DNA of 7,513 nt from a virus (lineage: Duplodnaviria; Heunggongvirae; Uroviricota; Caudoviricetes). The DNA lies in IMG/VR virus record IMGVR_UViG_2740892272_000010, positions 1-7,513 of that record; one strand, 5' to 3'. A program made the position numbers and the translations under genes. The notes beneath the pieces are model-generated. The model was given only the letters and a program-made list of their open reading frames with translations, ran no database searches and had not been told where the DNA came from. Of the stretch, positions 1-7,513 are shown piece after piece. The first letter of the stretch is position 1; every line of letters starts with the position of its first letter.

Positions 1-94
1 CGGAAGAAAAAGCCAGTTCTTCGCCCCTAAATAACAGCATGATTCCAGTCCATGCAAAATCTGATTTCCAGCTCACACATACCGAGCACTGTAC

Positions 95-116
95 AAAAAA
101 CCGCCAGCCAAGGCAG
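95..116 (-). terminator. putative rho-independent terminator
   Basis: On the minus strand CTGCC-TTGGCT-GGCGG forms a 5-bp stem (one G-U pair) followed by TTTTTT (complement of the A-run at 95-100). Lies about 260 nt downstream of the tRNA array. Weak stem, so low confidence. Confidence 0.3.
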
Positions 117-376
117 TTAAGAGTGTGTTCCCGGGGTTTGCTTAGAATATTTTGTAAGTTGTCCGAAGAGATATTTACAACACCAGAATGATGAATCATC
201 AGTCCCCTGCCAGAGGTTCACTACGTAACCTGACCGACAATGCACCATTCTGGTGCTGAAAAAAGAGCACTGGAACTGCAACAAAACAACATCACAGAAC
301 AGGAGATGGTAAGGAGTCAGACATTCCCACACAATATTGTGTCAGTGCAAATAACAACCTTCGTCTCAAATCTCGC

Positions 377-451
<75 letters not shown>

Positions 452-454
452 ATA

Positions 455-530
<76 letters not shown>

Positions 531-532
531 GC

Positions 533-609
533 TGGCCCACCACCGAGGACTCGAACCTCGCACCGTCAACTTAGAAGGTTGATGCTCTATCCGGATGAGC
601 TAGTGGTGG
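533..609 (-). tRNA. tRNA-Arg (anticodon UCU, reads AGA)
   Basis: Reverse complement reads CCACCACUAGCUCAUCCGGAUAGAGCAUCAACCUUCUAAGUUGACGGUGCGAGGUUCGAGUCCUCGGUGGUGGGCCA: acceptor CCACCAC/GUGGUGG, D-stem GCUC/GAGC, anticodon stem UCAAC/GUUGA, loop CUUCUAA, T-stem CGAGG/CCUCG, encoded CCA. Confidence 0.8.
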
Positions 610-610
610 T

Positions 611-687
611 TGGTGGCCCTTGCTGGACTTGAACCAGCGACCTGGCGATTATGAGTCGCTCGCTCTGACCAACTGAGCTAAAGGGCC
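611..687 (-). tRNA. tRNA-Ile2-like (anticodon CAU, probable lysidine tRNA reading AUA; elongator Met not excluded)
   Basis: Reverse complement reads GGCCCUUUAGCUCAGUUGGUCAGAGCGAGCGACUCAUAAUCGCCAGGUCGCUGGUUCAAGUCCAGCAAGGGCCACCA: acceptor GGCCCUU/AAGGGCC, anticodon loop CUCAUAA, encoded CCA. Close to E. coli ileX/ileZ-type sequences from memory. Confidence 0.75.
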
Positions 688-696
688 GGAGGCAGA

Positions 697-726
697 ATAA
701 TAACCATATGTCATCACATCTGCAAA
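697..726 (-). promoter_or_regulatory. candidate sigma70 promoter for the tRNA array
   Basis: Minus strand reads TTTGCA (726-721), an 18-nt spacer, then TATTAT (702-697); the predicted start site falls a few nt before the tRNA-Ile 5' end at 687. Motif match only. Confidence 0.25.
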
Positions 727-773
727 CTCATCTGACCACCAGCACGTTTAACGTCCTGTGCCGTTTTTCAGGT

Positions 774-801
774 ATAAAAAAACCCGCTCATCGGCGGGTT
801 T
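774..801 (-). terminator. rho-independent terminator downstream of the ORF6N gene
   Basis: Hairpin AACCCGC-TCATCG-GCGGGTT (781-800) is followed on the minus strand by a 7-U tract (complement of A776-A782). The plus strand has only UUU after the hairpin, so it is mainly a minus-strand terminator. Confidence 0.6.
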
Positions 802-876
802 AAGCTGTGTGGCGTAGTAACCACTCTTAACAGGATATTCAACTTTTTACGATCGTAAAGTTTTCGGAAAAAATTT

Positions 877-1440
877 TTAAAACCGCATCAACCGCTCCAC
901 CAGTTGCTCTTTACGGGCAACGATCCACCCGTGTTGCTCCAGATAAAATTTAAACCGTTCCAGAGTACATACCATCGCATCGGCGGGTACCTTTTCCGTG
1001 AACTCAACCTGACCGTGTTTATCGAAGTGGCTCAGTAATGCGCATCCATCATTTTCGATAGATGTGTTTTGTGCCGCTGGTGGCTGTTTCTGGTTGAAAT
1101 AACAGTCTTCCAGTTTTTCGAACACTTCCCACGCCTGATCGGTTTCGAGCATTTTGGCGTGACGGGCTGCGCCACGTTCTGTCCAGAGGATGAGGGAGCG
1201 AACGTTACGGGCAATTTTCACAGAAACTCTTAAAGAGTTTTCGTTCTTCAACTCTCGTAACGCATCACCTTCTATCAGGAAAAAATGTTTACCTTCTATA
1301 AACCGTTCTTTGTTTCGATTGAAATTGTTTGTCAAACGCTGGCGCTCTGTTCCGTACAAATCAGCCAGCAGCTCTGTTGTCATGACAGGAAGATGGTTAT
1401 GCGTAAGTGACGGGAGTTTTTCAATAGACGTGCGATTCAT
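877..1440 (-). CDS. ORF6N-domain protein (antirepressor-like DNA-binding N-terminal domain) with uncharacterised C-terminal region; prophage cargo gene
   Basis: The segment PVMTTELLADLYGTERQRLTNNFNRNKERFIEGKHFFLIEGDALREL matches the ORF6N signature (LAxLYG...RNxERFxxxFxF) from memory. Start placed at the ATG at 1440 (MNRTSIEK...), which has an AAAGGA Shine-Dalgarno 7 nt upstream. The longer frame back to 1638 lacks a ribosome-binding site and overlaps the predicted promoter. Confidence 0.7.
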   Translation of the reverse strand: MNRTSIEKLPSLTHNHLPVMTTELLADLYGTERQRLTNNFNRNKERFIEGKHFFLIEGDALRELKNENSLRVSVKIARNVRSLILWTERGAARHAKMLETDQAWEVFEKLEDCYFNQKQPPAAQNTSIENDGCALLSHFDKHGQVEFTEKVPADAMVCTLERFKFYLEQHGWIVARKEQLVERLMRF

Positions 1441-1646
1441 AGACATGTCCTTTCGAATATTTTGATTTACCCCTTTTGAGAGGGTGACCGGGCGCTCAAA
1501 ACCGTCGAAAGTCGGCGGGCGTATTTCCATTGCTGGTATTGTATTAGCCGCACACCCGGTCATAAACCAAGAATTCTGGACACAAAAAAACCACATGGCT
1601 ATCGGGTGTGGATACCGCTTTCGAGGTGTTTTGAGCACCGCGGGGA

Positions 1647-1675
1647 AATGTAAACTGCAAACCTGAAACTGTCAA
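1647..1675 (-). promoter_or_regulatory. candidate sigma70 promoter for the ORF6N gene
   Basis: Minus strand reads TTGACA (1675-1670), a 17-nt spacer, then TACATT (1652-1647). The -35 element sits between the arms of a 7-bp inverted repeat, AACCTGA (1660-1666) and TCAGGTT (1681-1687). Confidence 0.4.
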
Positions 1676-1800
1676 CACCGTCAGGTTCCAATCATCGGGT
1701 GGTGAGACGCACAGGGTTGGAACTACCGGGAAACCGACCGGCGAGCTTTTCAGCTCCCCCATGCGCCCCACCATAATTCAGATGTGCGCGTGCATACGAC

Positions 1801-1825
1801 AATAAAAAACACGCTCGCGGCGTGT
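1801..1825 (-). terminator. tR'-like rho-independent terminator downstream of Q
   Basis: GC-rich hairpin ACACGC-TCGCG-GCGTGT (1809-1825) is followed on the minus strand by TTTTTATT. It lies about 60 nt downstream of the predicted PR'-like promoter. Confidence 0.5.
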
Positions 1826-1886
1826 GTCTGTCGCGGTCTCTATCCGGGGTTCCAATCCCGACGCCAGATTTTGCTGGCGCGTGAGG

Positions 1887-1916
1887 AATATAGCCCCGGA
1901 CAATGTGTCTGGTCAA
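1887..1916 (-). promoter_or_regulatory. PR'-like late promoter immediately downstream of Q
   Basis: Minus strand reads TTGACC (1916-1911), an 18-nt spacer, then TATATT (1892-1887), beginning 5 bp after the Q stop codon. This is the position of PR' and the qut site in lambdoid phages. Confidence 0.4.
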
Positions 1917-1920
1917 GCAC

Positions 1921-2307
1921 CTACATAATTCGTTCTACGTATCTGTCCATCTCCAGCCGGATATCAAGCATCATCAACATGCCATCAATAACCCCTTCCG
2001 CTTTCTGCAGGCGCTTGCCAATACAGGTATCCGAACACCCATGTTTCCGTGCCAGACTCATAAAAGTCATTCCACCTACGTAATAATCCACCAGCAAATC
2101 GTGCAAATCCTGATTTTTCTTGTTCAACCGGGCCATACAGCCACAAATTATCATTGCATCATCATCAGAACACTGAGGGCGTGATTTCACTTTCGACGGA
2201 ATTAACCCTTTAAAACCAGCAGCGATCGACGCCCAGGATACATCTTCATGAGTGTTTGCAGCCCAAGCCCCCCACCGTTCCATAACCTGCTGAATATCAC
2301 GCGCCAT
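1921..2307 (-). CDS. phage late antiterminator Q-like protein (QuuD/933W-Q-type small Q family)
   Basis: Protein [35 protein letters not shown]...[17 protein letters not shown]... resembles the small Q antiterminators of DLP12 and 933W from memory, and the gene sits directly after rusA as in those phages. Several Cys residues are consistent with a zinc-binding site. Start placed at the ATG at 2307, which has an AGGTGA Shine-Dalgarno 5 nt upstream; the alternative start at 2328 lacks one. Confidence 0.65.
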
Positions 2308-2668
2308 CGTTATCACCTGTGATTTCATAAATCTTCACGCCCAGTCGCCCACCAGGAACGAGCTGACCGCGCACAATATTGATTTCATCAAACTGCTCGT
2401 CGTCTATGAGTAGTCCGGCATGCGTCAGCGCATCCAGTGGTGCTTTCAGGATATTGTCCAGGTCACGACGGCGCTTATCCGGTGGCTCTGCAATAATCTT
2501 TATCGCCAGCCTTCCGGACAGGTTTAATTTCAGCCGCTGCTGGCGAACAATTAGCGTCACATCACGGCGATAACGCTCACCAACTTTTGATACAAAATAT
2601 GTGCTGCCACGACGTCGCCAGTAAGTATTCACCGTCGGCGGATAAGGTAAAATAAACTCATGGCGCAT
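2297..2668 (-). CDS. rusA: RusA-family Holliday junction resolvase (crossover junction endodeoxyribonuclease)
   Basis: Carries the RusA signature [30 protein letters not shown] and an N-terminal [15 protein letters not shown] motif. A GGAGGTG Shine-Dalgarno precedes the ATG at 2668, which overlaps the stop of the upstream ORF (TGATG). Confidence 0.88.
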
Positions 2669-2910
2669 CAGCGCAGCACCTCCTGCACCATTTTTTCAAA
2701 CTTTCCAACTTTGGTTTCCAGCTCTGCCACACAATCAACGAGCTCATCCACCGCTTTTTGTGCGCGATGTTTCGCCTGCATCAGTTCCCTGAGCGCTGGC
2801 ACCATATCCCGACGAATGGCATCTTTTGTTACACCTGTTTTTTCCAGTTGTTCCGCCTGTCGCAACATTTCCTGCGCGTGTTTACGCAATTGTTCAGAGG
2901 TAAAAGTCAT
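2668..2910 (-). CDS. small hypothetical phage protein (nin-region, predicted helical/coiled-coil)
   Basis: Open frame of about 80 aa (MTFTSEQLRKHAQEMLRQAEQLEK...) packed between the helicase and rusA. Its stop overlaps the rusA start. The start is ambiguous: ATG at 2910 with no clear Shine-Dalgarno, or TTG at 2925 overlapping the helicase stop. Confidence 0.5.
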   Translation of the reverse strand: MTFTSEQLRKHAQEMLRQAEQLEKTGVTKDAIRRDMVPALRELMQAKHRAQKAVDELVDCVAELETKVGKFEKMVQEVLR

Positions 2911-2921
2911 TGTCTGGTTGT

Positions 2922-4313
2922 TCAAAAGAAACGCTCCATCTTACTGCTGTCGGTACGTGTATTGCTGTATCTGCGCGGCTGGGGCTGCCGCATTGGGGTG
3001 GAAAGAACCTGTGCGCTTTCCTGGTCCACAGGCAGAAAATGTCCGTTATAAAAACGCCGGTAAATCGTCCCCAGAGAACCGTTACGTTGTTTCGTGATAT
3101 TAATTTCTGCTATGCCTGTAGCCTGTGTATCCGGGTTGTACACTTCATCCCTGTAAAGCATCAGAATGATGTCTGCATCCGCCTCTATTTCTCCGGAATT
3201 TTTCAGGTCTGAGTTCATGGGACGTTTATTGGGTCTGGACTCCACACCGCGGGAGAGCTGGCTCAGCGCAATCAACGGAAAACCACCGGATTTTGCCAGG
3301 CCTTTAAGCCCCTTTGAGATTTCACCCACGGCAAGGTCATGACGCCCCGTGGTTCGGGTTTTTATCAGCCCGAGATAATCAACCACCACCAGCGCCGTTT
3401 CCGGATGTTTAATCAGATGGTGTTTCGTTGTTGCGCATATCTCATCAATGGTCAGGTTCGCCTGGTCCACCATCCAGATATTGCGCCCGGTCATCCGCCC
3501 CACCCCTTGTGAGAAACGCGCCCAGTCTTCATCTTCAAAGTGAGCCACAGATTTCAGGCGTGATACTGGCATCCCTCCAGCCGCAGACACCATACGTTCA
3601 CCAATCTGGATGTTCGCCATCTCCATGGTGAACAGAAGCACACCATGCCCCTGCTCAGTCACCTTGTCGATGATGTCCAGCGCAAGTTCGGTTTTCCCCA
3701 TCGAAGGACGGGCGGCAATGAATACCAGGTCTCCGGGCTCCATACCGCCTGTTTTTGCGTCCAGTTCATCAATACCGGTCATCAACGTCCTGGATTTCTC
3801 CAGCCCCTGATTCCGGCATTCAACACGCTCAACCACTTCCGGAAGCACATCATCAATATGTACCGGCTGAATGACGCCCTTTCCTGTCGACAGTGTGACC
3901 ATCATGTTCTGCGCATCCTTCAGGGCATCTTCAGCTGCTTCACAGGTATGCGCATCACGTAATTTCTGCAGCGCCTCATTCAGTGTTTTTTCTGCATCGC
4001 GCAGTGCGGCATTGCGCCGCAACGCTGCAACATAGTGCTCCAGTGAAGACTTCACCCAGGTTTTACGCCCGGTATCAGTAATCACCGGGGCAAGTTCCGG
4101 CATCTCATTACACAACAGCACGGGGTCAATCACTCCTGAAACACGGGCCTGTCTGCAGATGCCTGTGTAGATATCCCGATACGCTCGTACAGAAAAAATG
4201 TCCGCCGGTAGTGTGATCAGAATATCCATCACTTCATGATCTGCCCCACGCAGAAAGAATGCGCCAATGACAGCGCCTTCCAGGTCATCATTACGCCAGA
4301 CTGGTGTTGTCAT
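2922..4313 (-). CDS. phage-encoded replicative DNA helicase, DnaB family
   Basis: Walker A motif IAARPSMGKTE, DnaB-like blocks LVVVDYLGLIK, ALSQLSRGVESRPNKRPMNSDLKNSGEIEADADIILMLYRDEVY and ITKQRNGSLGTI; about 463 aa. Start placed at the ATG at 4313 (MTTPVW...), which has a GAGGTG Shine-Dalgarno and overlaps the stop of an upstream frame (ATGA). The longer frame to 4454 starts on GTG inside the IS2 terminal repeat and is rejected. Confidence 0.88.
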   Translation of the reverse strand: MTTPVWRNDDLEGAVIGAFFLRGADHEVMDILITLPADIFSVRAYRDIYTGICRQARVSGVIDPVLLCNEMPELAPVITDTGRKTWVKSSLEHYVAALRRNAALRDAEKTLNEALQKLRDAHTCEAAEDALKDAQNMMVTLSTGKGVIQPVHIDDVLPEVVERVECRNQGLEKSRTLMTGIDELDAKTGGMEPGDLVFIAARPSMGKTELALDIIDKVTEQGHGVLLFTMEMANIQIGERMVSAAGGMPVSRLKSVAHFEDEDWARFSQGVGRMTGRNIWMVDQANLTIDEICATTKHHLIKHPETALVVVDYLGLIKTRTTGRHDLAVGEISKGLKGLAKSGGFPLIALSQLSRGVESRPNKRPMNSDLKNSGEIEADADIILMLYRDEVYNPDTQATGIAEINITKQRNGSLGTIYRRFYNGHFLPVDQESAQVLSTPMRQPQPRRYSNTRTDSSKMERFF

Positions 4314-4417
4314 GCAGCCACACCTCTGATACAAGAACGGTAGCTGGGCCAGTTGAACGACAACCAGTTGCGCCCCCCGTCTGTGATCCTGTCGGCAATG
4401 CGGGGGCTGATGAACGC
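4310..4417 (-). pseudogene. 3' remnant of the prophage gene upstream of the helicase (probably replication initiator or helicase loader), cut by IS2
   Basis: A minus-strand frame is open from the IS2 boundary (4417) to a TGA at 4312-4310 that overlaps the helicase ATG, encoding ...AFISPRIADRITDGGRNWLSFNWPSYRSCIRGVAA*. The rest of the gene is replaced by IS2. Confidence 0.4.
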
Positions 4418-4428
4418 TGGATTTGCCC

Positions 4429-5334
4429 CTATATTTCCAGACACCTGTTATCACTTAACCCATTACTGGCTTGCTGCCGTAGATATTCCCGTGGCGAGCG
4501 ATAACCCAGTGCACTATGCGGATGCCATTCGTTATAATGCTCGAACGCCTCTGCAAGGTTCTTTGCTGCCGTTAACCCGTCTGGTTTGGGCATGACACTG
4601 ATGTAGTCACGCTTTATCGTTTTCACGAAGCTCTCTGCTATGCCGTTACTCTCCGGACTCCGCACCGCCGTGCTCTTCGGTTCAAGCCCCAACATCCGGG
4701 CAAACTGCCGTGTTTCATTAGCCCGGTAGCATGAACCATTATCCGTCAGCCACTCTACTGGAGACGCCGGAAGCTCGTTGCCGAAGCGGCGTTCCACCGC
4801 TCCCAGCATGACGTCCTGTACTGTTTCACTGTTGAAGCCGCCCGTAGTGACCGCCCAGTGCAGTGCCTCACGGTCACAGCAGTCCAGCGCGAACGTGACT
4901 CGCAGTTTTTCTCCGTTATCACAGCGGAACTCGAACCCGTCAGAGCACCATCGCTGATTACTTTCTTTCACAGCCACTCTGCCTGTATGTGCCCGTTTCG
5001 ATGGCGGTACAGCAGGTTTTCGCTCAAGCAACAGCGCATTCTGGCGCATGATCCGGTAAACACGTTTGGCATTGATCGCAGGCATACCATCAAGTTCTGC
5101 CTGTCTGCGAAGCAGCGCCCATACCCGACGATAACCATACGTGGGCAGCTCTCCGATAACATGGTGTATACGGAGAAGCACATCCGTATCATCAGTGTGA
5201 CGACTGCGGCGGCCATCCATCCAGTCATCGGTTCGTCTGAGAATGACGTGCAACTGCGCACGCGACACCCGGAGACAACGGCTGACTAAGCTTACTCCCC
5301 ATCCCCGGGCAATAAGGGCGCGTGCGCTATCCAC
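4429..5334 (-). CDS. insD: IS2 transposase InsD (orfB, DDE integrase domain)
   Basis: 301-aa frame [34 protein letters not shown]...[20 protein letters not shown] matches IS2 InsD from memory; GTG start next to the frameshift window. Confidence 0.9.
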
Positions 5335-5577
5335 TTTTTTGCCCGTCCATATTCAACGGCTTCTTTGAGGAGTTCATTTTCCATCGTTTTCTTGCCGAGC
5401 AGGCGCTGGAGTTCTTTAATCTGCTTCATGGCGGCAGCAAGTTCAGAGGCAGGAACAACCTGTTCTCCGGCGGCCACAGCAGTAAGACTTCCTTCCTGGT
5501 ATTGCTTACGCCAGAGAAATAACTGGCTGGCTGCTACACCATGTTGCCGGGCAACGAGGGAGACCGTCATCCCCGGT
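5292..5577 (-). pseudogene. insC: IS2 InsC (orfA) lacking its N-terminal ~28 codons
   Basis: Frame encodes ...[80 protein letters not shown]..., the C-terminal ~93 aa of InsC. The expected N-terminus (MIDVLGPEKRRR...) and its upstream sequence are replaced by the hchA 3' end. Confidence 0.8.
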
Positions 5578-5585
5578 AACAGGGA

Positions 5586-6437
5586 TTAATCCGCATAAGC
5601 TGCCAGCATTTCCTGCGCCGCCAGTTTACCCAACGCATTCGCTGCGAAAGGACTGTCGCCGGTGAGAACTTTACGGTCCTTATGTACTCGCCCGGTGATG
5701 TCGTCATTAATAATGTTCATGCCCATTTTCTTCAGCTCTTCGCCGAAGTACCAGGTGAGATGACCCGGCATATAGCCTATCTCTGGCGTTTGTTTGTCTG
5801 CGGCGTCTGGGAATGCGCAAATGGAATAACCATTCAGTGGGTTATCGCCGTGGCGAAGCGCCAGAAAAGCCGCCGGGCCGTGGCAAAGGGAGATAACAAA
5901 ACGGTCATTTTTGATTGCCCACTGCAAAGCAGCAGCTACGTCCTGGCTTTCTGGTAAACCAATAAGTGCGCCATGACCACCAGGAACAAAGATTGCTGCA
6001 TATTCGCTATCAGCGTTGAGGCTGGCGACAACATCCGCGAGTTTCTTCGGATTGCGGAACAACGATTTATGCTGCTCAAAGAATGGCATTACTTTTTCAT
6101 CTTTGTGCGGCATAGCCCAGTATTCAAACTTGGTCATCAGACCGGAAATGGTCGCCACTTCGAATTCGAAACCAGCAGCATGGAGATGATACAACGGCAG
6201 CAACGTTTCAATCGGATGGTTACCGGTCGAGAACAGTTTTCCGTTATCGGTTGGCAAATAACGTTCGTCCGCGGCGATCACCAGAATTTTATGCTTACCG
6301 CGATACGGTTTTGGATAGTCCACGCCATCAAGATCAGAGACGGGACTGGTATATTGGCTAAGCGAATATTCTGAAGGGAAGAATGCATTATCTTCAGCAA
6401 TATCGACCTGCGGATTTTTACTTGTTTGAACAGTCAT
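5586..6437 (-). CDS. hchA: Hsp31 / glyoxalase III / protein deglycase HchA (DJ-1/PfpI family)
   Basis: 283-aa protein MTVQTSKNPQVDIAEDNAFFPSEYSLSQYTSPVSDLDGVDYPKPYRGKHKILVIAADERYL...ISLCHGPAAFLA... matches E. coli HchA almost exactly from memory. AAGGA Shine-Dalgarno 7 nt upstream of the ATG at 6437. Confidence 0.95.
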   Translation of the reverse strand: MTVQTSKNPQVDIAEDNAFFPSEYSLSQYTSPVSDLDGVDYPKPYRGKHKILVIAADERYLPTDNGKLFSTGNHPIETLLPLYHLHAAGFEFEVATISGLMTKFEYWAMPHKDEKVMPFFEQHKSLFRNPKKLADVVASLNADSEYAAIFVPGGHGALIGLPESQDVAAALQWAIKNDRFVISLCHGPAAFLALRHGDNPLNGYSICAFPDAADKQTPEIGYMPGHLTWYFGEELKKMGMNIINDDITGRVHKDRKVLTGDSPFAANALGKLAAQEMLAAYAD

Positions 6438-7027
6438 AGTGTATTCCTTATTGTTGCTTAGTTAGGGTAGTCACTATATTTGCGACTGAGCTGGTCGCTA
6501 TTTTTAACCAGTCTGGAAAATTGAGTCAATATATCGAAAGCGGTAGTCGGCGGGTGTAAGTATGTAATGATGATGCTGCACTGGTGTTGAATATTATTCA
6601 CGCCAAATTTTCCTTATTGAGCAACGTCGTCGCAAGTGGCCTCAATGATTTTAGGCCATTATCAAAGGTACGGGGCGGCGGGGAGAGATTTAGTGCTGTG
6701 AAATATTGTGGTACTGATGAATATTTATATCGCGGATTGGTAGAGAAAAGATTATTTCATGCACTATTTTTGCAAATATTTCTATATGGGAAGCGTGTTT
6801 GTTACGGATTAATTCATAAAGAAATGCATTTGGGTGTTGGTTTGAAGAGTCGCTGGTTGATGTTATTGTGCCAGGAGGGGCAGGGTAAGGTGCTGTATCG
6901 ATATGCATTGGCAATTGCGTGTGCCGCAGATGGAGATGAAATGCCAATAAAAAAGCCTGAATTCGATGAGGGACGAACTCAGGCTAGTGTTTAGTTTTAC
7001 AGTAACACGCCGCAGCACGTTGGCTGA

Positions 7028-7399
7028 TTAGAACTGGTAGACTAAGCCCACACCAACAACGTCATCTGTTGCGATGCCATTGTTGTCATAGAAATCGTCA
7101 TCTTTATCCAACAAGTTTATTTTATAGTCAACATATGTTGAGAAGTTCTTATTGAAATAGTAGGTCGCTCCAATTTCAACATAGTTGACCAGATCCTGAT
7201 CAACATACTCCTGATGACCATTGTTGTTATAGTCGTTACCGCCGAGGTCTTTGCCTTTTGAATAAACATATGCAAGAGATGGGCGCAGACCAAAATCGAA
7301 CTGATACTGTGCTACAGCTTCAAAGTTCTGGGTTTTATTTGCGATACCCACATTACCATATGGTGTCATATTGCGGGTTTCAGCATACATCATTGCAAG
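7028..7399 (-). pseudogene. yedS: C-terminal fragment of an OmpC/OmpF-family general porin (yedS-like), truncated upstream by IS1
   Basis: Frame ends with the porin C-terminal signature ...[38 protein letters not shown]. Only about 123 codons are present before the IS1 end at 7400. Its position directly upstream of hchA on the same strand matches the K-12 yedS-hchA arrangement, so the symbol is assigned by synteny and is tentative. Confidence 0.6.
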
Positions 7400-7513
7400 G
7401 GTAATGACTCCAACTTATTGATAGTGTTTTATGTTCAGATAATGCCCGATGACTTTGTCATGCAGCTCCACCGATTTTGAGAACGACAGCGACTTCCGTC
7501 CCAGCCGTGCCAG
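7400..7513 (-). mobile_element. IS1 (partial; right end with terminal inverted repeat, continues past the window edge)
   Basis: Plus strand 7400-7513 (GGTAATGACTCCAACTTATTGATAGTGTTTTATGTTCAGATAATGCCCGATGAC...) is the reverse complement of the IS1 right end, including the insB 3' region, as I recall it. Confidence 0.85.

Follow-up and report, generated by a model that had tools for sequence, protein, structure and literature searches.

The window analysed here is a stretch of 7,513 nucleotides (nt) from a Caudoviricetes virus record (IMG/VR, IMGVR_UViG_2740892272_000010, positions 1 to 7,513), and this report concerns a gene within it that is similar to the phage genes ant and anrP, here called ant, together with the leader that precedes it. 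The gene lies between the gene of the late antiterminator Q and an array of tRNA genes; all elements of the cassette are located on the minus strand, and coordinates refer to the whole window (Table 1). The original prediction, made from the letters alone, had placed in this slot, between Q with its terminator tR' and the tRNA genes, a promoter, a Shine-Dalgarno (SD) sequence, an open reading frame (ORF) of 187 amino acids (aa) and a terminator, all of which were found; the promoter, hereafter P2, has the predicted coordinates and is kept among related leaders. The leader of about 200 nt, from a presumed transcription start near 1640 to the ATG at 1440, also has the predicted length, but it is not the plain, passive leader that had been assumed, as it holds a terminator-like stop and an element of the small RNA (sRNA) family sRNA-Xcc1 that is complementary to the ribosome-binding site (RBS) of ant. 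Nor is the cassette self-contained, as had been proposed, because a circuit consisting of the late promoter PR', the short RNA IsrK, tR' and the antisense RNA C4 (1916..1695) is present directly upstream, with the -35 hexamer of P2 at the joint; in Gifsy-1, this circuit drives the homologous gene by read-through.

The leader starts with a short RNA that carries two boxes, a1 (GCUCAAAAC, in the loop of a GGUG/CACC hairpin) and b1, and that reaches a weak hairpin followed by seven U residues. Further downstream, an element of about 84 nt was matched by the Rfam model of sRNA-Xcc1 (RF02221) with 77.4 bits, the gathering scores being 53 for sRNA-Xcc1, 50 for isrK, 46.7 for c4-a1b1, and 45 for C4. 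The architecture of this element is c4-like, with box b' in a hairpin loop, box a' in a junction, and a CACCC tail 3' of the closing helix. Its target site, boxes a2 and b2, is located at the SD of ant, with a2 ending 3 nt before b2 and b2 overlapping the SD itself; no ORF is present between the Xcc1 element and ant. Box b' is exactly complementary to both b1 and b2, which share one word (UCGAAAG), and box a' (UUUUGAG) is complementary to the (G)CUCAAAA(C) of a1 and to the UCAAAA of a2. The duplex of the Xcc1 element with the a1/b1 segment has a predicted energy of -32.2 kcal/mol (z -5.9), and none of 1000 shuffles was as strong. Whole-element RNAduplex predictions returned very long, uninformative duplexes and were replaced by tests of exact words and covariation.

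Leaders from nine loci and two more distant phages were aligned, and the order of elements is conserved among them, namely promoter, a1, b1, weak hairpin with U-run, Xcc1, a2, and b2. The word shared by b1, b' and b2 is TCGAAAG in the window and Salmonella, TCAGTAG in E. coli EC12, CAAGTAG in Nil2 and P13374, CAGAAAG in locus L096, ACGAAG in Acinetobacter phage 4316, and CCAAAAA in Pasteurella phage Pmp3. The stop hairpin of the short RNA covaries as well, from CCAC/GUGG to CCGC/GCGG. Scanning IMG/VR with a pattern for the conserved core of Xcc1 yielded 91 distinct loci. In each of them we looked for an exact word, 6 nt or longer, that is part of hairpin 2 and has its reverse complement on either side, once upstream and once downstream, with the reversed but not complemented word as control. 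Such a three-site word was found in 59 of the 91 loci (control, 7 of 91), with more than 30 different words, and the distance from the end of b2 to the start codon in these 59 loci is either 7-12 nt, which places b2 on the SD, or -1 to 3 nt. In 56 of the 59, b1 is followed at 20-30 nt by a stretch of five or more T residues, compared with 18% of control segments. The full layout of promoter, a1-b1, U-run, Xcc1 and a2-b2 was seen 5' of a KilA-N gene in Acinetobacter phage 4316 (L107, 1330-1640), and the layout from promoter to a2-b2 recurs, with its own word, 5' of the Ant gene of Pasteurella phage Pmp3 (L108, 1330-1640).

The genes that follow such leaders are mostly recognizable by their domains. 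Among 65 of them, Pfam detected Bro-N (12), ORF6N (12), Phage_pRha (10), KilA-N (7), and P22_AR_N (4), as well as P22_AR_C (12) and ORF6C (9). The P2-Xcc1 leader was found in 163 of 5,426 complete E. coli genomes, including Stx (Shiga toxin) prophages of O157:H7 and O104:H4 type, and almost none of the RefSeq matches listed for E. coli has an annotated feature under it. The exact combination found in the window is rare, with two of the 5,426 genomes covering at least 80% of 700-1950. In the searchable literature, sRNA-Xcc1 and ORF6N are linked as a passing co-occurrence only, with no mechanism described.

The match of P2 to the promoter consensus is unremarkable when taken alone, since four promoter-like sites were found in 2.1 kb where 2.2 were expected by chance; it is the comparison of leaders, rather than the single match, that makes P2 convincing. 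A promoter with at least 9 of 12 matches lies within 53 nt 5' of the conserved CTCAAAA box (a1) in 67% of 57 related leaders and in 2% of random segments. The commonest -35 hexamer among these leaders is TTGACA, the -10 hexamer ends at a fixed distance from the CTCAAAA box, and in the aligned leaders the hexamers of P2 are retained even where the flanking DNA is unrelated. A promoter has also been annotated at the equivalent place 5' of antB in Nil2. The -35 hexamer of P2 sits at a recombination joint with sequence common to loci that have the upstream circuit without P2, and homology to the antB leaders of Stx phages begins at 1639, the presumed transcription start. An inverted repeat (AACCTGA/TCAGGTT, 1664-1693, minus strand) flanks the -35 hexamer; its arms are AACATGAA and TTCATGTT in E. 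coli EC12 (L001), and hence covary, and it could be an RNA hairpin in read-through transcripts from PR' or an operator.

The start of ant was assigned to the ATG at 1440 because it follows the SD by 7 nt; an alternative ATG at 1446 is only 1 nt from the SD and is missing in homologues. The start context is CUAUGAAU, without an overlapping stop codon. An in-frame extension to 253 aa (GTG at 1638) was rejected, as it overlaps the Xcc1 RNA, has no usable SD, and does not begin at the conserved start. Salmonella records (P0005, P0094, P0115; L004, 3001-3090) annotate versions of 211-217 aa with an N-terminal extension; these starts are probably mis-called, because the extension is read through the Xcc1 RNA and a usable SD is absent. 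The 3' untranslated region (876..775) is 88-100% conserved among related loci, apart from one partial match of 37 bases, and what the Rfam Trp_leader model matched at 847..774, with 24.9 bits where the gathering score is 41, is simply the ant terminator.

The upstream tier has the same composition of putative decoy, antisense and target boxes. The IsrK RNA (Rfam, 77.5 bits) overlaps a c4-a1b1 motif (50.1 bits), carries box b1 in the loop of its second hairpin, and ends at the tR' hairpin and U-run; it is followed by a C4-type RNA (71.0 bits) and, directly after that, by box b2. With respect to Q and IsrK, PR' is placed as in Gifsy-1. The three boxes of this tier covary across the window (IsrK loop and post-C4 box both ATTGGAAC, C4 junction GTTCCAA), Gifsy-1 (both ATTGGCGT, junction ACGCCAA), and E. 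coli L002 (both ATTAGGAAC, junction GTTCCTAA). According to a survey of 106 loci, a short architecture (IsrK-C4-ant) is present in Gifsy-1 and most E. coli prophages, and a long one (IsrK-C4-P2-Xcc1-ant) in the window, its identical copies, E. coli EC12, and several Salmonella prophages. In the short relatives the RBS of ant comes after box b2 of the C4 circuit, whereas in the window P2 is found at that place. In loci L049-L053 (about 600-725), a C4 copy 96-98% identical to that of the window lies about 45 nt 3' of an ant gene and is followed by the post-C4 box, so that antirepressor modules are arranged in tandem, head to tail.

Table 1. Features of the ant cassette and its neighbours in the 7,513-nt window
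Feature	Position	Strand	Basis or remark
Q late antiterminator gene	1921..2328	-	Pfam Phage_antitermQ, E 2.7e-52; upstream neighbour
PR'-like late promoter, TTGACC-18-TATATT	1887..1916	-	promoter scan; corresponds to the Gifsy-1 isrK promoter
c4-a1b1 motif	1893..1841	-	Rfam; overlaps isrK RNA
isrK-type short RNA	1880..1804	-	Rfam; ends at tR' hairpin and U-run
box b1, upstream tier, UUGGAAC	1855..1849	-	loop of second IsrK hairpin
tR' hairpin	1825..1809	-	terminator scan
C4-type antisense RNA	1695..1778	-	Rfam
C4 junction box b', GUUCCAA	1723..1717	-	
C4-circuit box b2, UUGGAAC	1685..1691	-	directly after C4
promoter P2, TTGACA-17-TACATT	1647..1675	-	consensus scan, 10/12 matches
short leader RNA	1584..1640	-	boxes a1 and b1, terminator-like stop
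box a1	1636..1628	-	loop of hairpin GGUG/CACC
box b1, UCGAAAG	1624..1618	-	in short leader RNA
weak hairpin CCACA/UGUGG and U7	1606..1584	-	terminator-like stop
sRNA-Xcc1 element, ~84 nt	1478..1561	-	Rfam RF02221; within ant leader
loop box b', CUUUCGA	1511..1505	-	hairpin loop of sRNA-Xcc1 element
junction box a', UUUUGAG	1501..1495	-	sRNA-Xcc1 element
target site of Xcc1 RNA	1448..1465	-	boxes a2 and b2, ant SD
box a2, UCAAAA	1465..1460	-	3 nt before b2
box b2, UCGAAAG	1456..1450	-	overlaps ant SD
SD of ant, AAAGGA	1453..1448	-	7 nt 5' of ATG 1440
ant/anrP-like gene, 187 aa	877..1440	-	ATG at 1440, stop codon 879..877
intrinsic terminator of ant transcript	780..801	-	8-bp stem, 5 G-C pairs, T-run
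tRNA array: Met(CAT), Arg(TCT), Thr(TGT), Gly(TCC)	377..687	-	ARAGORN; Rfam tRNA; downstream neighbour

By sequence, the ant protein is a member of the AnrP/phrog_2379 antirepressor family. The family phrog_2379 (PHROG annotation, anti-repressor) matches it over about its full length (2-187 of 187, E 4.4e-85), and BLASTP aligned it to STM2616 (AnrP) of Gifsy-1 with 49% identity over 184 of 187 aa (E 6e-58). The ORF6N domain that had been predicted was recovered by the profile search that might have contradicted it (PF10543, aa 15-99, profile positions 5-86 of 86, 74.4 bits with a cut-off of 27.8, E 9e-21). The C-terminal part, for which no family had been recognised, gave no Pfam match over the last 74 aa and no structural match either, and the P22 antirepressor domains (P22_AR_N, P22_AR_C, ANT) were absent from the 187-aa protein in Pfam at E up to 1. 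The suggestion of a regulatory or antirepressor function thus agrees with the family membership, but that of an uncharacterised, stx-like cargo gene does not hold, as the family is known and its member in the same slot of Gifsy-1 has been studied experimentally (PMC4825925).

A database search returned 4,908 relatives of the protein. Nearly all of the best 120 have a length of 184-198 aa, a few reaching 230 aa; their sources are Shigella, E. coli, Salmonella, Citrobacter, and E. albertii, and their records call them 'ORF6N domain-containing protein' or 'antirepressor'. The top relative, from Shigella sonnei, is 99% identical. The protein is 100% identical in ten IMG/VR contigs (L027-L036), nine of which are also 100% identical in every DNA element from the 3' end of Q to the ant stop codon, and the tenth has a single mismatch in the C-terminal coding part of ant. 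A scan of the genome collection for relatives found only 20 loci, mostly distant Firmicutes ORF6N genes that are uninformative for the leader. In the AlphaFold model (48-sequence alignment, mean predicted local distance difference test score, pLDDT, of 73), the ORF6N domain (aa ~12-113) is predicted with confidence to be winged-helix-like (pLDDT 78-90), aa 112-129 appear to be a disordered linker, and the C-terminal module (aa ~130-187) is modelled as a beta-hairpin and two helices (pLDDT ~70-78), a fold that could not be recognised. This module is portable, with a copy of about 90% identity behind Phage_pRha in L100 and more distant copies behind AntA and Phage_ASH (P0149) and behind other ORF6N domains. 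Its occurrence behind varied N-termini is in keeping with the 'Bro network', in which regulators swap domains (PMC10111431). Through its ORF6N domain, the protein was weakly matched in PADLOC to PDC-S05, a candidate defence family (E 1e-7).

The slot between Q and the lysis genes is variable, with an ant-like gene present in some relatives and absent in others, and the slot after Q is occupied by this gene family in E. coli and Salmonella loci as well. In Gifsy-1 (NC_010392), the gene after Q is STM2616 (SL2578), of 187 aa, followed by a tRNA gene; STM2616 is the AnrP of Hershko-Shalev et al. 2016. The window and Gifsy-1 share the order of Q, PR'/IsrK, C4-type RNA, 187-aa ORF6N protein, terminator and tRNA, Rfam places isrK, c4-a1b1 and C4 at equivalent positions, and the window has AUG codons at +107 and +119 of the PR' transcript, the positions of orf45. 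Unlike the window, Gifsy-1 lacks sRNA-Xcc1, and the window has about 200 nt extra, which comprise P2, the short terminated RNA and Xcc1. Previous study showed that transcripts of anrP in Gifsy-1 start at the isrK promoter and read through the IsrK terminator, with no transcription of anrP when that promoter is missing, that anrP is translationally silent unless IsrK is supplied in trans, and that AnrP expressed alone in trans raises antQ-operon mRNA and induces Gifsy-1 (PMC4825925). Its translation was reported to be coupled to the upstream orf45, whose stop codon overlaps the start codon of anrP (AUGA) (PMC4825925). The published orf45/STnc1160 region of Gifsy-1 (L006, 34131-34214) is matched by a full Rfam C4 RNA (69 bits), and the IsrK-orf45 pairing of the 2016 paper is the counterpart of c4-a1b1 pairing with C4. 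The corresponding ORF in the window, of 76 aa (MVGRM..., 1544-1774, minus strand), has its possible starts at these two AUG codons, inside the C4 RNA, spans P2, and ends inside the Xcc1 RNA, 104 nt 5' of ATG 1440. Gifsy-1 also has isrJ, for which the Rfam scan gave no match at the 3' end of the cassette in the window, and a separate, proven antirepressor, GfoA (PMC3121763).

The proximal module resembles the immI region of phages P1 and P7. The c4 RNA of these phages is cut from the ant leader by RNase P, has two boxes, a' and b', complementary to a1/b1 and a2/b2, which are phage-specific and account for heteroimmunity, and acts on the RBS of icd with polarity on ant. In this system an antisense RNA from the ant leader pairs with one site on either side of it, and the downstream one is on an RBS (Citron & Schuster 1990). 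In the window, likewise, structured antisense RNAs (C4 and sRNA-Xcc1) lie in the ant leader on the same strand, their boxes match one upstream and one downstream site in exact 7-9-mers, the downstream site of sRNA-Xcc1 being on the RBS of ant, and the box sequences differ between phages. The differences are that the proximal RNA matches sRNA-Xcc1 rather than C4, that its target is the SD of ant itself instead of a small upstream gene, that the protein combines ORF6N with an unnamed domain, and that the module belongs to the late-control region of a lambdoid prophage, where it forms a tandem duplication with a true C4 tier.

A further parallel is offered by the antB/antB2 genes of Stx phages (Nil2, 2851, P13374, Shigella phage 75/02 Stx), which have the same sRNA-Xcc1 element and an ORF6N N-terminus. 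If two more distant matches are set apart, the leader between transcription start and SD shows 87-88% identity in 28 phage records. The nin region of Nil2 has the order IsrK-C4-antA-promoter-Xcc1-antB, that is, the two tiers of the window with a gene between them, and the arrangement in the window looks like that of Nil2 with the first gene lost. However, antB is located in the nin region and the module of the window after Q, the word of Nil2 is CAAGTAG, and its antB protein ends in P22_AR_C instead of the unnamed module. The CI RNA of phage P4, with seqA and seqC, was named as a structural parallel by the authors of the Gifsy-1 study (PMC4825925); it too is a processed leader RNA that pairs with sites on both sides and controls downstream genes, but it acts via transcription termination and on replication genes, and no sequence or family match was found between the window and P4 CI RNA.

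Taken together, we consider it probable (about 65%) that the segment forms the half nearest the gene of a control region with two tiers, which resembles immI of P1 and regulates a phage gene of the antirepressor type. The basis in this analysis is homology, RNA family matches, exact complementarity, three-way covariation, the position at the RBS, and the conservation of promoter and U-run; from c4 of P1/P7 and IsrK of Gifsy-1, by analogy, we infer that the antisense RNA represses, that the short RNA relieves this repression, that RNA is processed, and that the protein acts as an antirepressor. In such a scheme, P2 would start a transcript whose first ~55 nt carry boxes a1 and b1 and may stop at the weak hairpin and U7. 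Transcripts reading through would carry the c4-like RNA of the sRNA-Xcc1 family, whose loop b' and junction a' would pair with a2/b2 on the SD of ant and block its translation. The short a1/b1 RNA may serve as a decoy for the antisense boxes and free the RBS, because its duplex with Xcc1 is far stronger (-32.2 against -14.2 kcal/mol), and such a role matches the trans-activation of anrP translation by IsrK in Gifsy-1. The PR'-IsrK-tR'-C4 tier may represent an older copy of the same logic, and read-through of the terminator or Q antitermination from PR' would add transcription into ant. By analogy with AnrP, the ant protein, when made, would most likely lift repression of the early operon of a resident lambdoid prophage.

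Several findings weigh against the reading of the segment as a two-tier antirepressor control region. The duplex of Xcc1 with the RBS is weak when considered alone (z -1.4, reached by 104 of 1000 shuffles), so that the case for this pairing rests on covariation. The Rfam C4 model (RF01695, clan CL00128) gave no match at 1561..1478 at E up to 1, and RF02221 belongs to no Rfam clan; the term c4-like therefore denotes a similar architecture and logic and not demonstrated homology, the two consensus structures being alike in a long closing helix, two inner hairpins and a CCACCC tail. The coupling of anrP to orf45 cannot, as described, be transferred to the window, because the orf45-like ORF ends so far before the start of ant. 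The C-terminal ~60 aa of the protein are only about 28% identical to AnrP, as counted from the alignment. Moreover, no repressor or immunity region is present in the window, where the prophage is truncated by an insertion sequence (IS) element, so that any target of the protein must lie elsewhere in the genome, and in two loci with 99-100% identity to the window elsewhere, ant is interrupted by insertions of ~1.2 kb (L037, 1259-2506) and ~1.9 kb (L038, 3004-4918), suggesting that the gene may be dispensable, or counter-selected in some strains. The last two findings would also suit a decaying relic, in which the protein has no cognate target and the small RNAs (IsrK, C4, Xcc1, and the short leader RNA) have been kept and act in trans on other prophages or host mRNAs; IsrK does act in trans (PMC4825925), and the title of Chen et al. 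2011 introduces sRNA-Xcc1 as a trans-acting sRNA. We regard this as quite improbable, as the ORF is intact and identical in ten independent contigs, and antirepressors can act in trans on non-cognate prophage repressors (PMC3121763), by which a truncated prophage can still matter.

The other alternatives concern the protein and its promoter. It is unlikely, although worth considering, that the protein regulates by binding specific DNA sequences, as an activator or by competing at operators, rather than as an antirepressor that binds a protein, in which case the RNA gating would be unchanged. That ant is autonomous 'moron' cargo, expressed in the lysogen from its own promoter, outside phage regulation, and with a new host function, would agree with the conserved promoter and terminator around a single gene, with its presence or absence among relatives in a variable slot, and with a C-terminal domain without a named family; yet the protein falls in a phage regulatory family, the co-evolving antisense target over its translation start speaks for tight silencing and not constitutive expression, and the same leader is found 5' of genes of antirepressor type both in Stx phages, in their nin region, and in phages unrelated to these, which makes this very improbable. 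Control of P2 by LexA, as for an SOS-controlled antirepressor of GfoA, Tum or AntC type, was raised by a CTG-N10-CAG motif (CTGACGGTGTTGACAG, 1689..1674) that overlaps the -35 hexamer. The interior of this motif is G+C-rich, unlike the LexA box consensus, in E. coli EC12 its CTG half has given way to ATG..., and the motif is absent from the P2 versions of Salmonella, Nil2 and L096, so that LexA control was rejected for P2. The size of the ant protein is also unrelated to that of GfoA/GftA, described as about half of the 146 aa of Tum (PMC3121763), and SOS control is thus hardly credible.

The comparative evidence for tandem RNA control and for Xcc1 as a c4-like gate of antirepressor genes is strong, and these two points are what is new here, the protein family (AnrP) being already known. 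A broader proposal, which we hold only tentatively and at clearly less than even odds, is that sRNA-Xcc1 is a second widespread c4-like 'immunity' antisense class, each copy of which would gate an adjacent antirepressor of the Bro network through a three-site code (decoy box, antisense loop, RBS box), with dozens of specificities in phages of Enterobacteriaceae, Pasteurellaceae, and Acinetobacter. The literature presents sRNA-Xcc1 as a trans-acting, virulence-linked integron sRNA of Xanthomonas. If the proposal is true, the window would be a tandem of IsrK/C4 and leader/Xcc1 that brings late transcription dependent on Q together with transcription from an independent promoter at a single antirepressor, and that could also mediate cross-talk of co-resident prophages at the RNA level. 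If the two-tier model of the segment holds, a class of antirepressor genes of Shigella, E. coli, Salmonella, and other bacteria would be silenced by a self-encoded antisense RNA whose specificity is a short, evolvable word, which would explain how strong constitutive promoters can stand before antirepressor genes without killing the lysogen, and would predict RNA-level immunity groups and cross-talk between co-resident prophages. This would matter because it is antirepressors that determine when a dormant prophage is activated, and Shiga toxin genes are carried by some of these prophages. It would also re-interpret the Rfam family sRNA-Xcc1, which is currently annotated without this function, as the orf45 region of Gifsy-1 is re-read here as a C4 RNA. 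For the window itself the outcome is more modest, namely a recognisable regulatory-family gene in a degraded prophage.

This prophage is lambdoid and defective, and Shigella sonnei is probably its host. A DnaB-type helicase gene (2922-4454), RusA and Q remain, and an IS3-family (IS2-like) element (4429-5570), with an orfB containing rve domains and an orfA containing HTH_Tnp_1, stands in place of the early region. The element abuts hchA (DJ-1/PfpI, 5586-6437), which is followed by a C-terminal fragment of a porin gene (7028-7393), and it looks truncated itself, because the start of orfA is only 16 nt from the stop codon of hchA. On the other side of ant, a promoter-like site (TTTGCA-18-TATTAT, 697-726, minus strand) was found just 5' of the tRNA array, suggesting that the array may be transcribed independently of the ant terminator. 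In this array the CAT anticodon could belong to a tRNA for Ile (lysidine), as it does in Stx phages.

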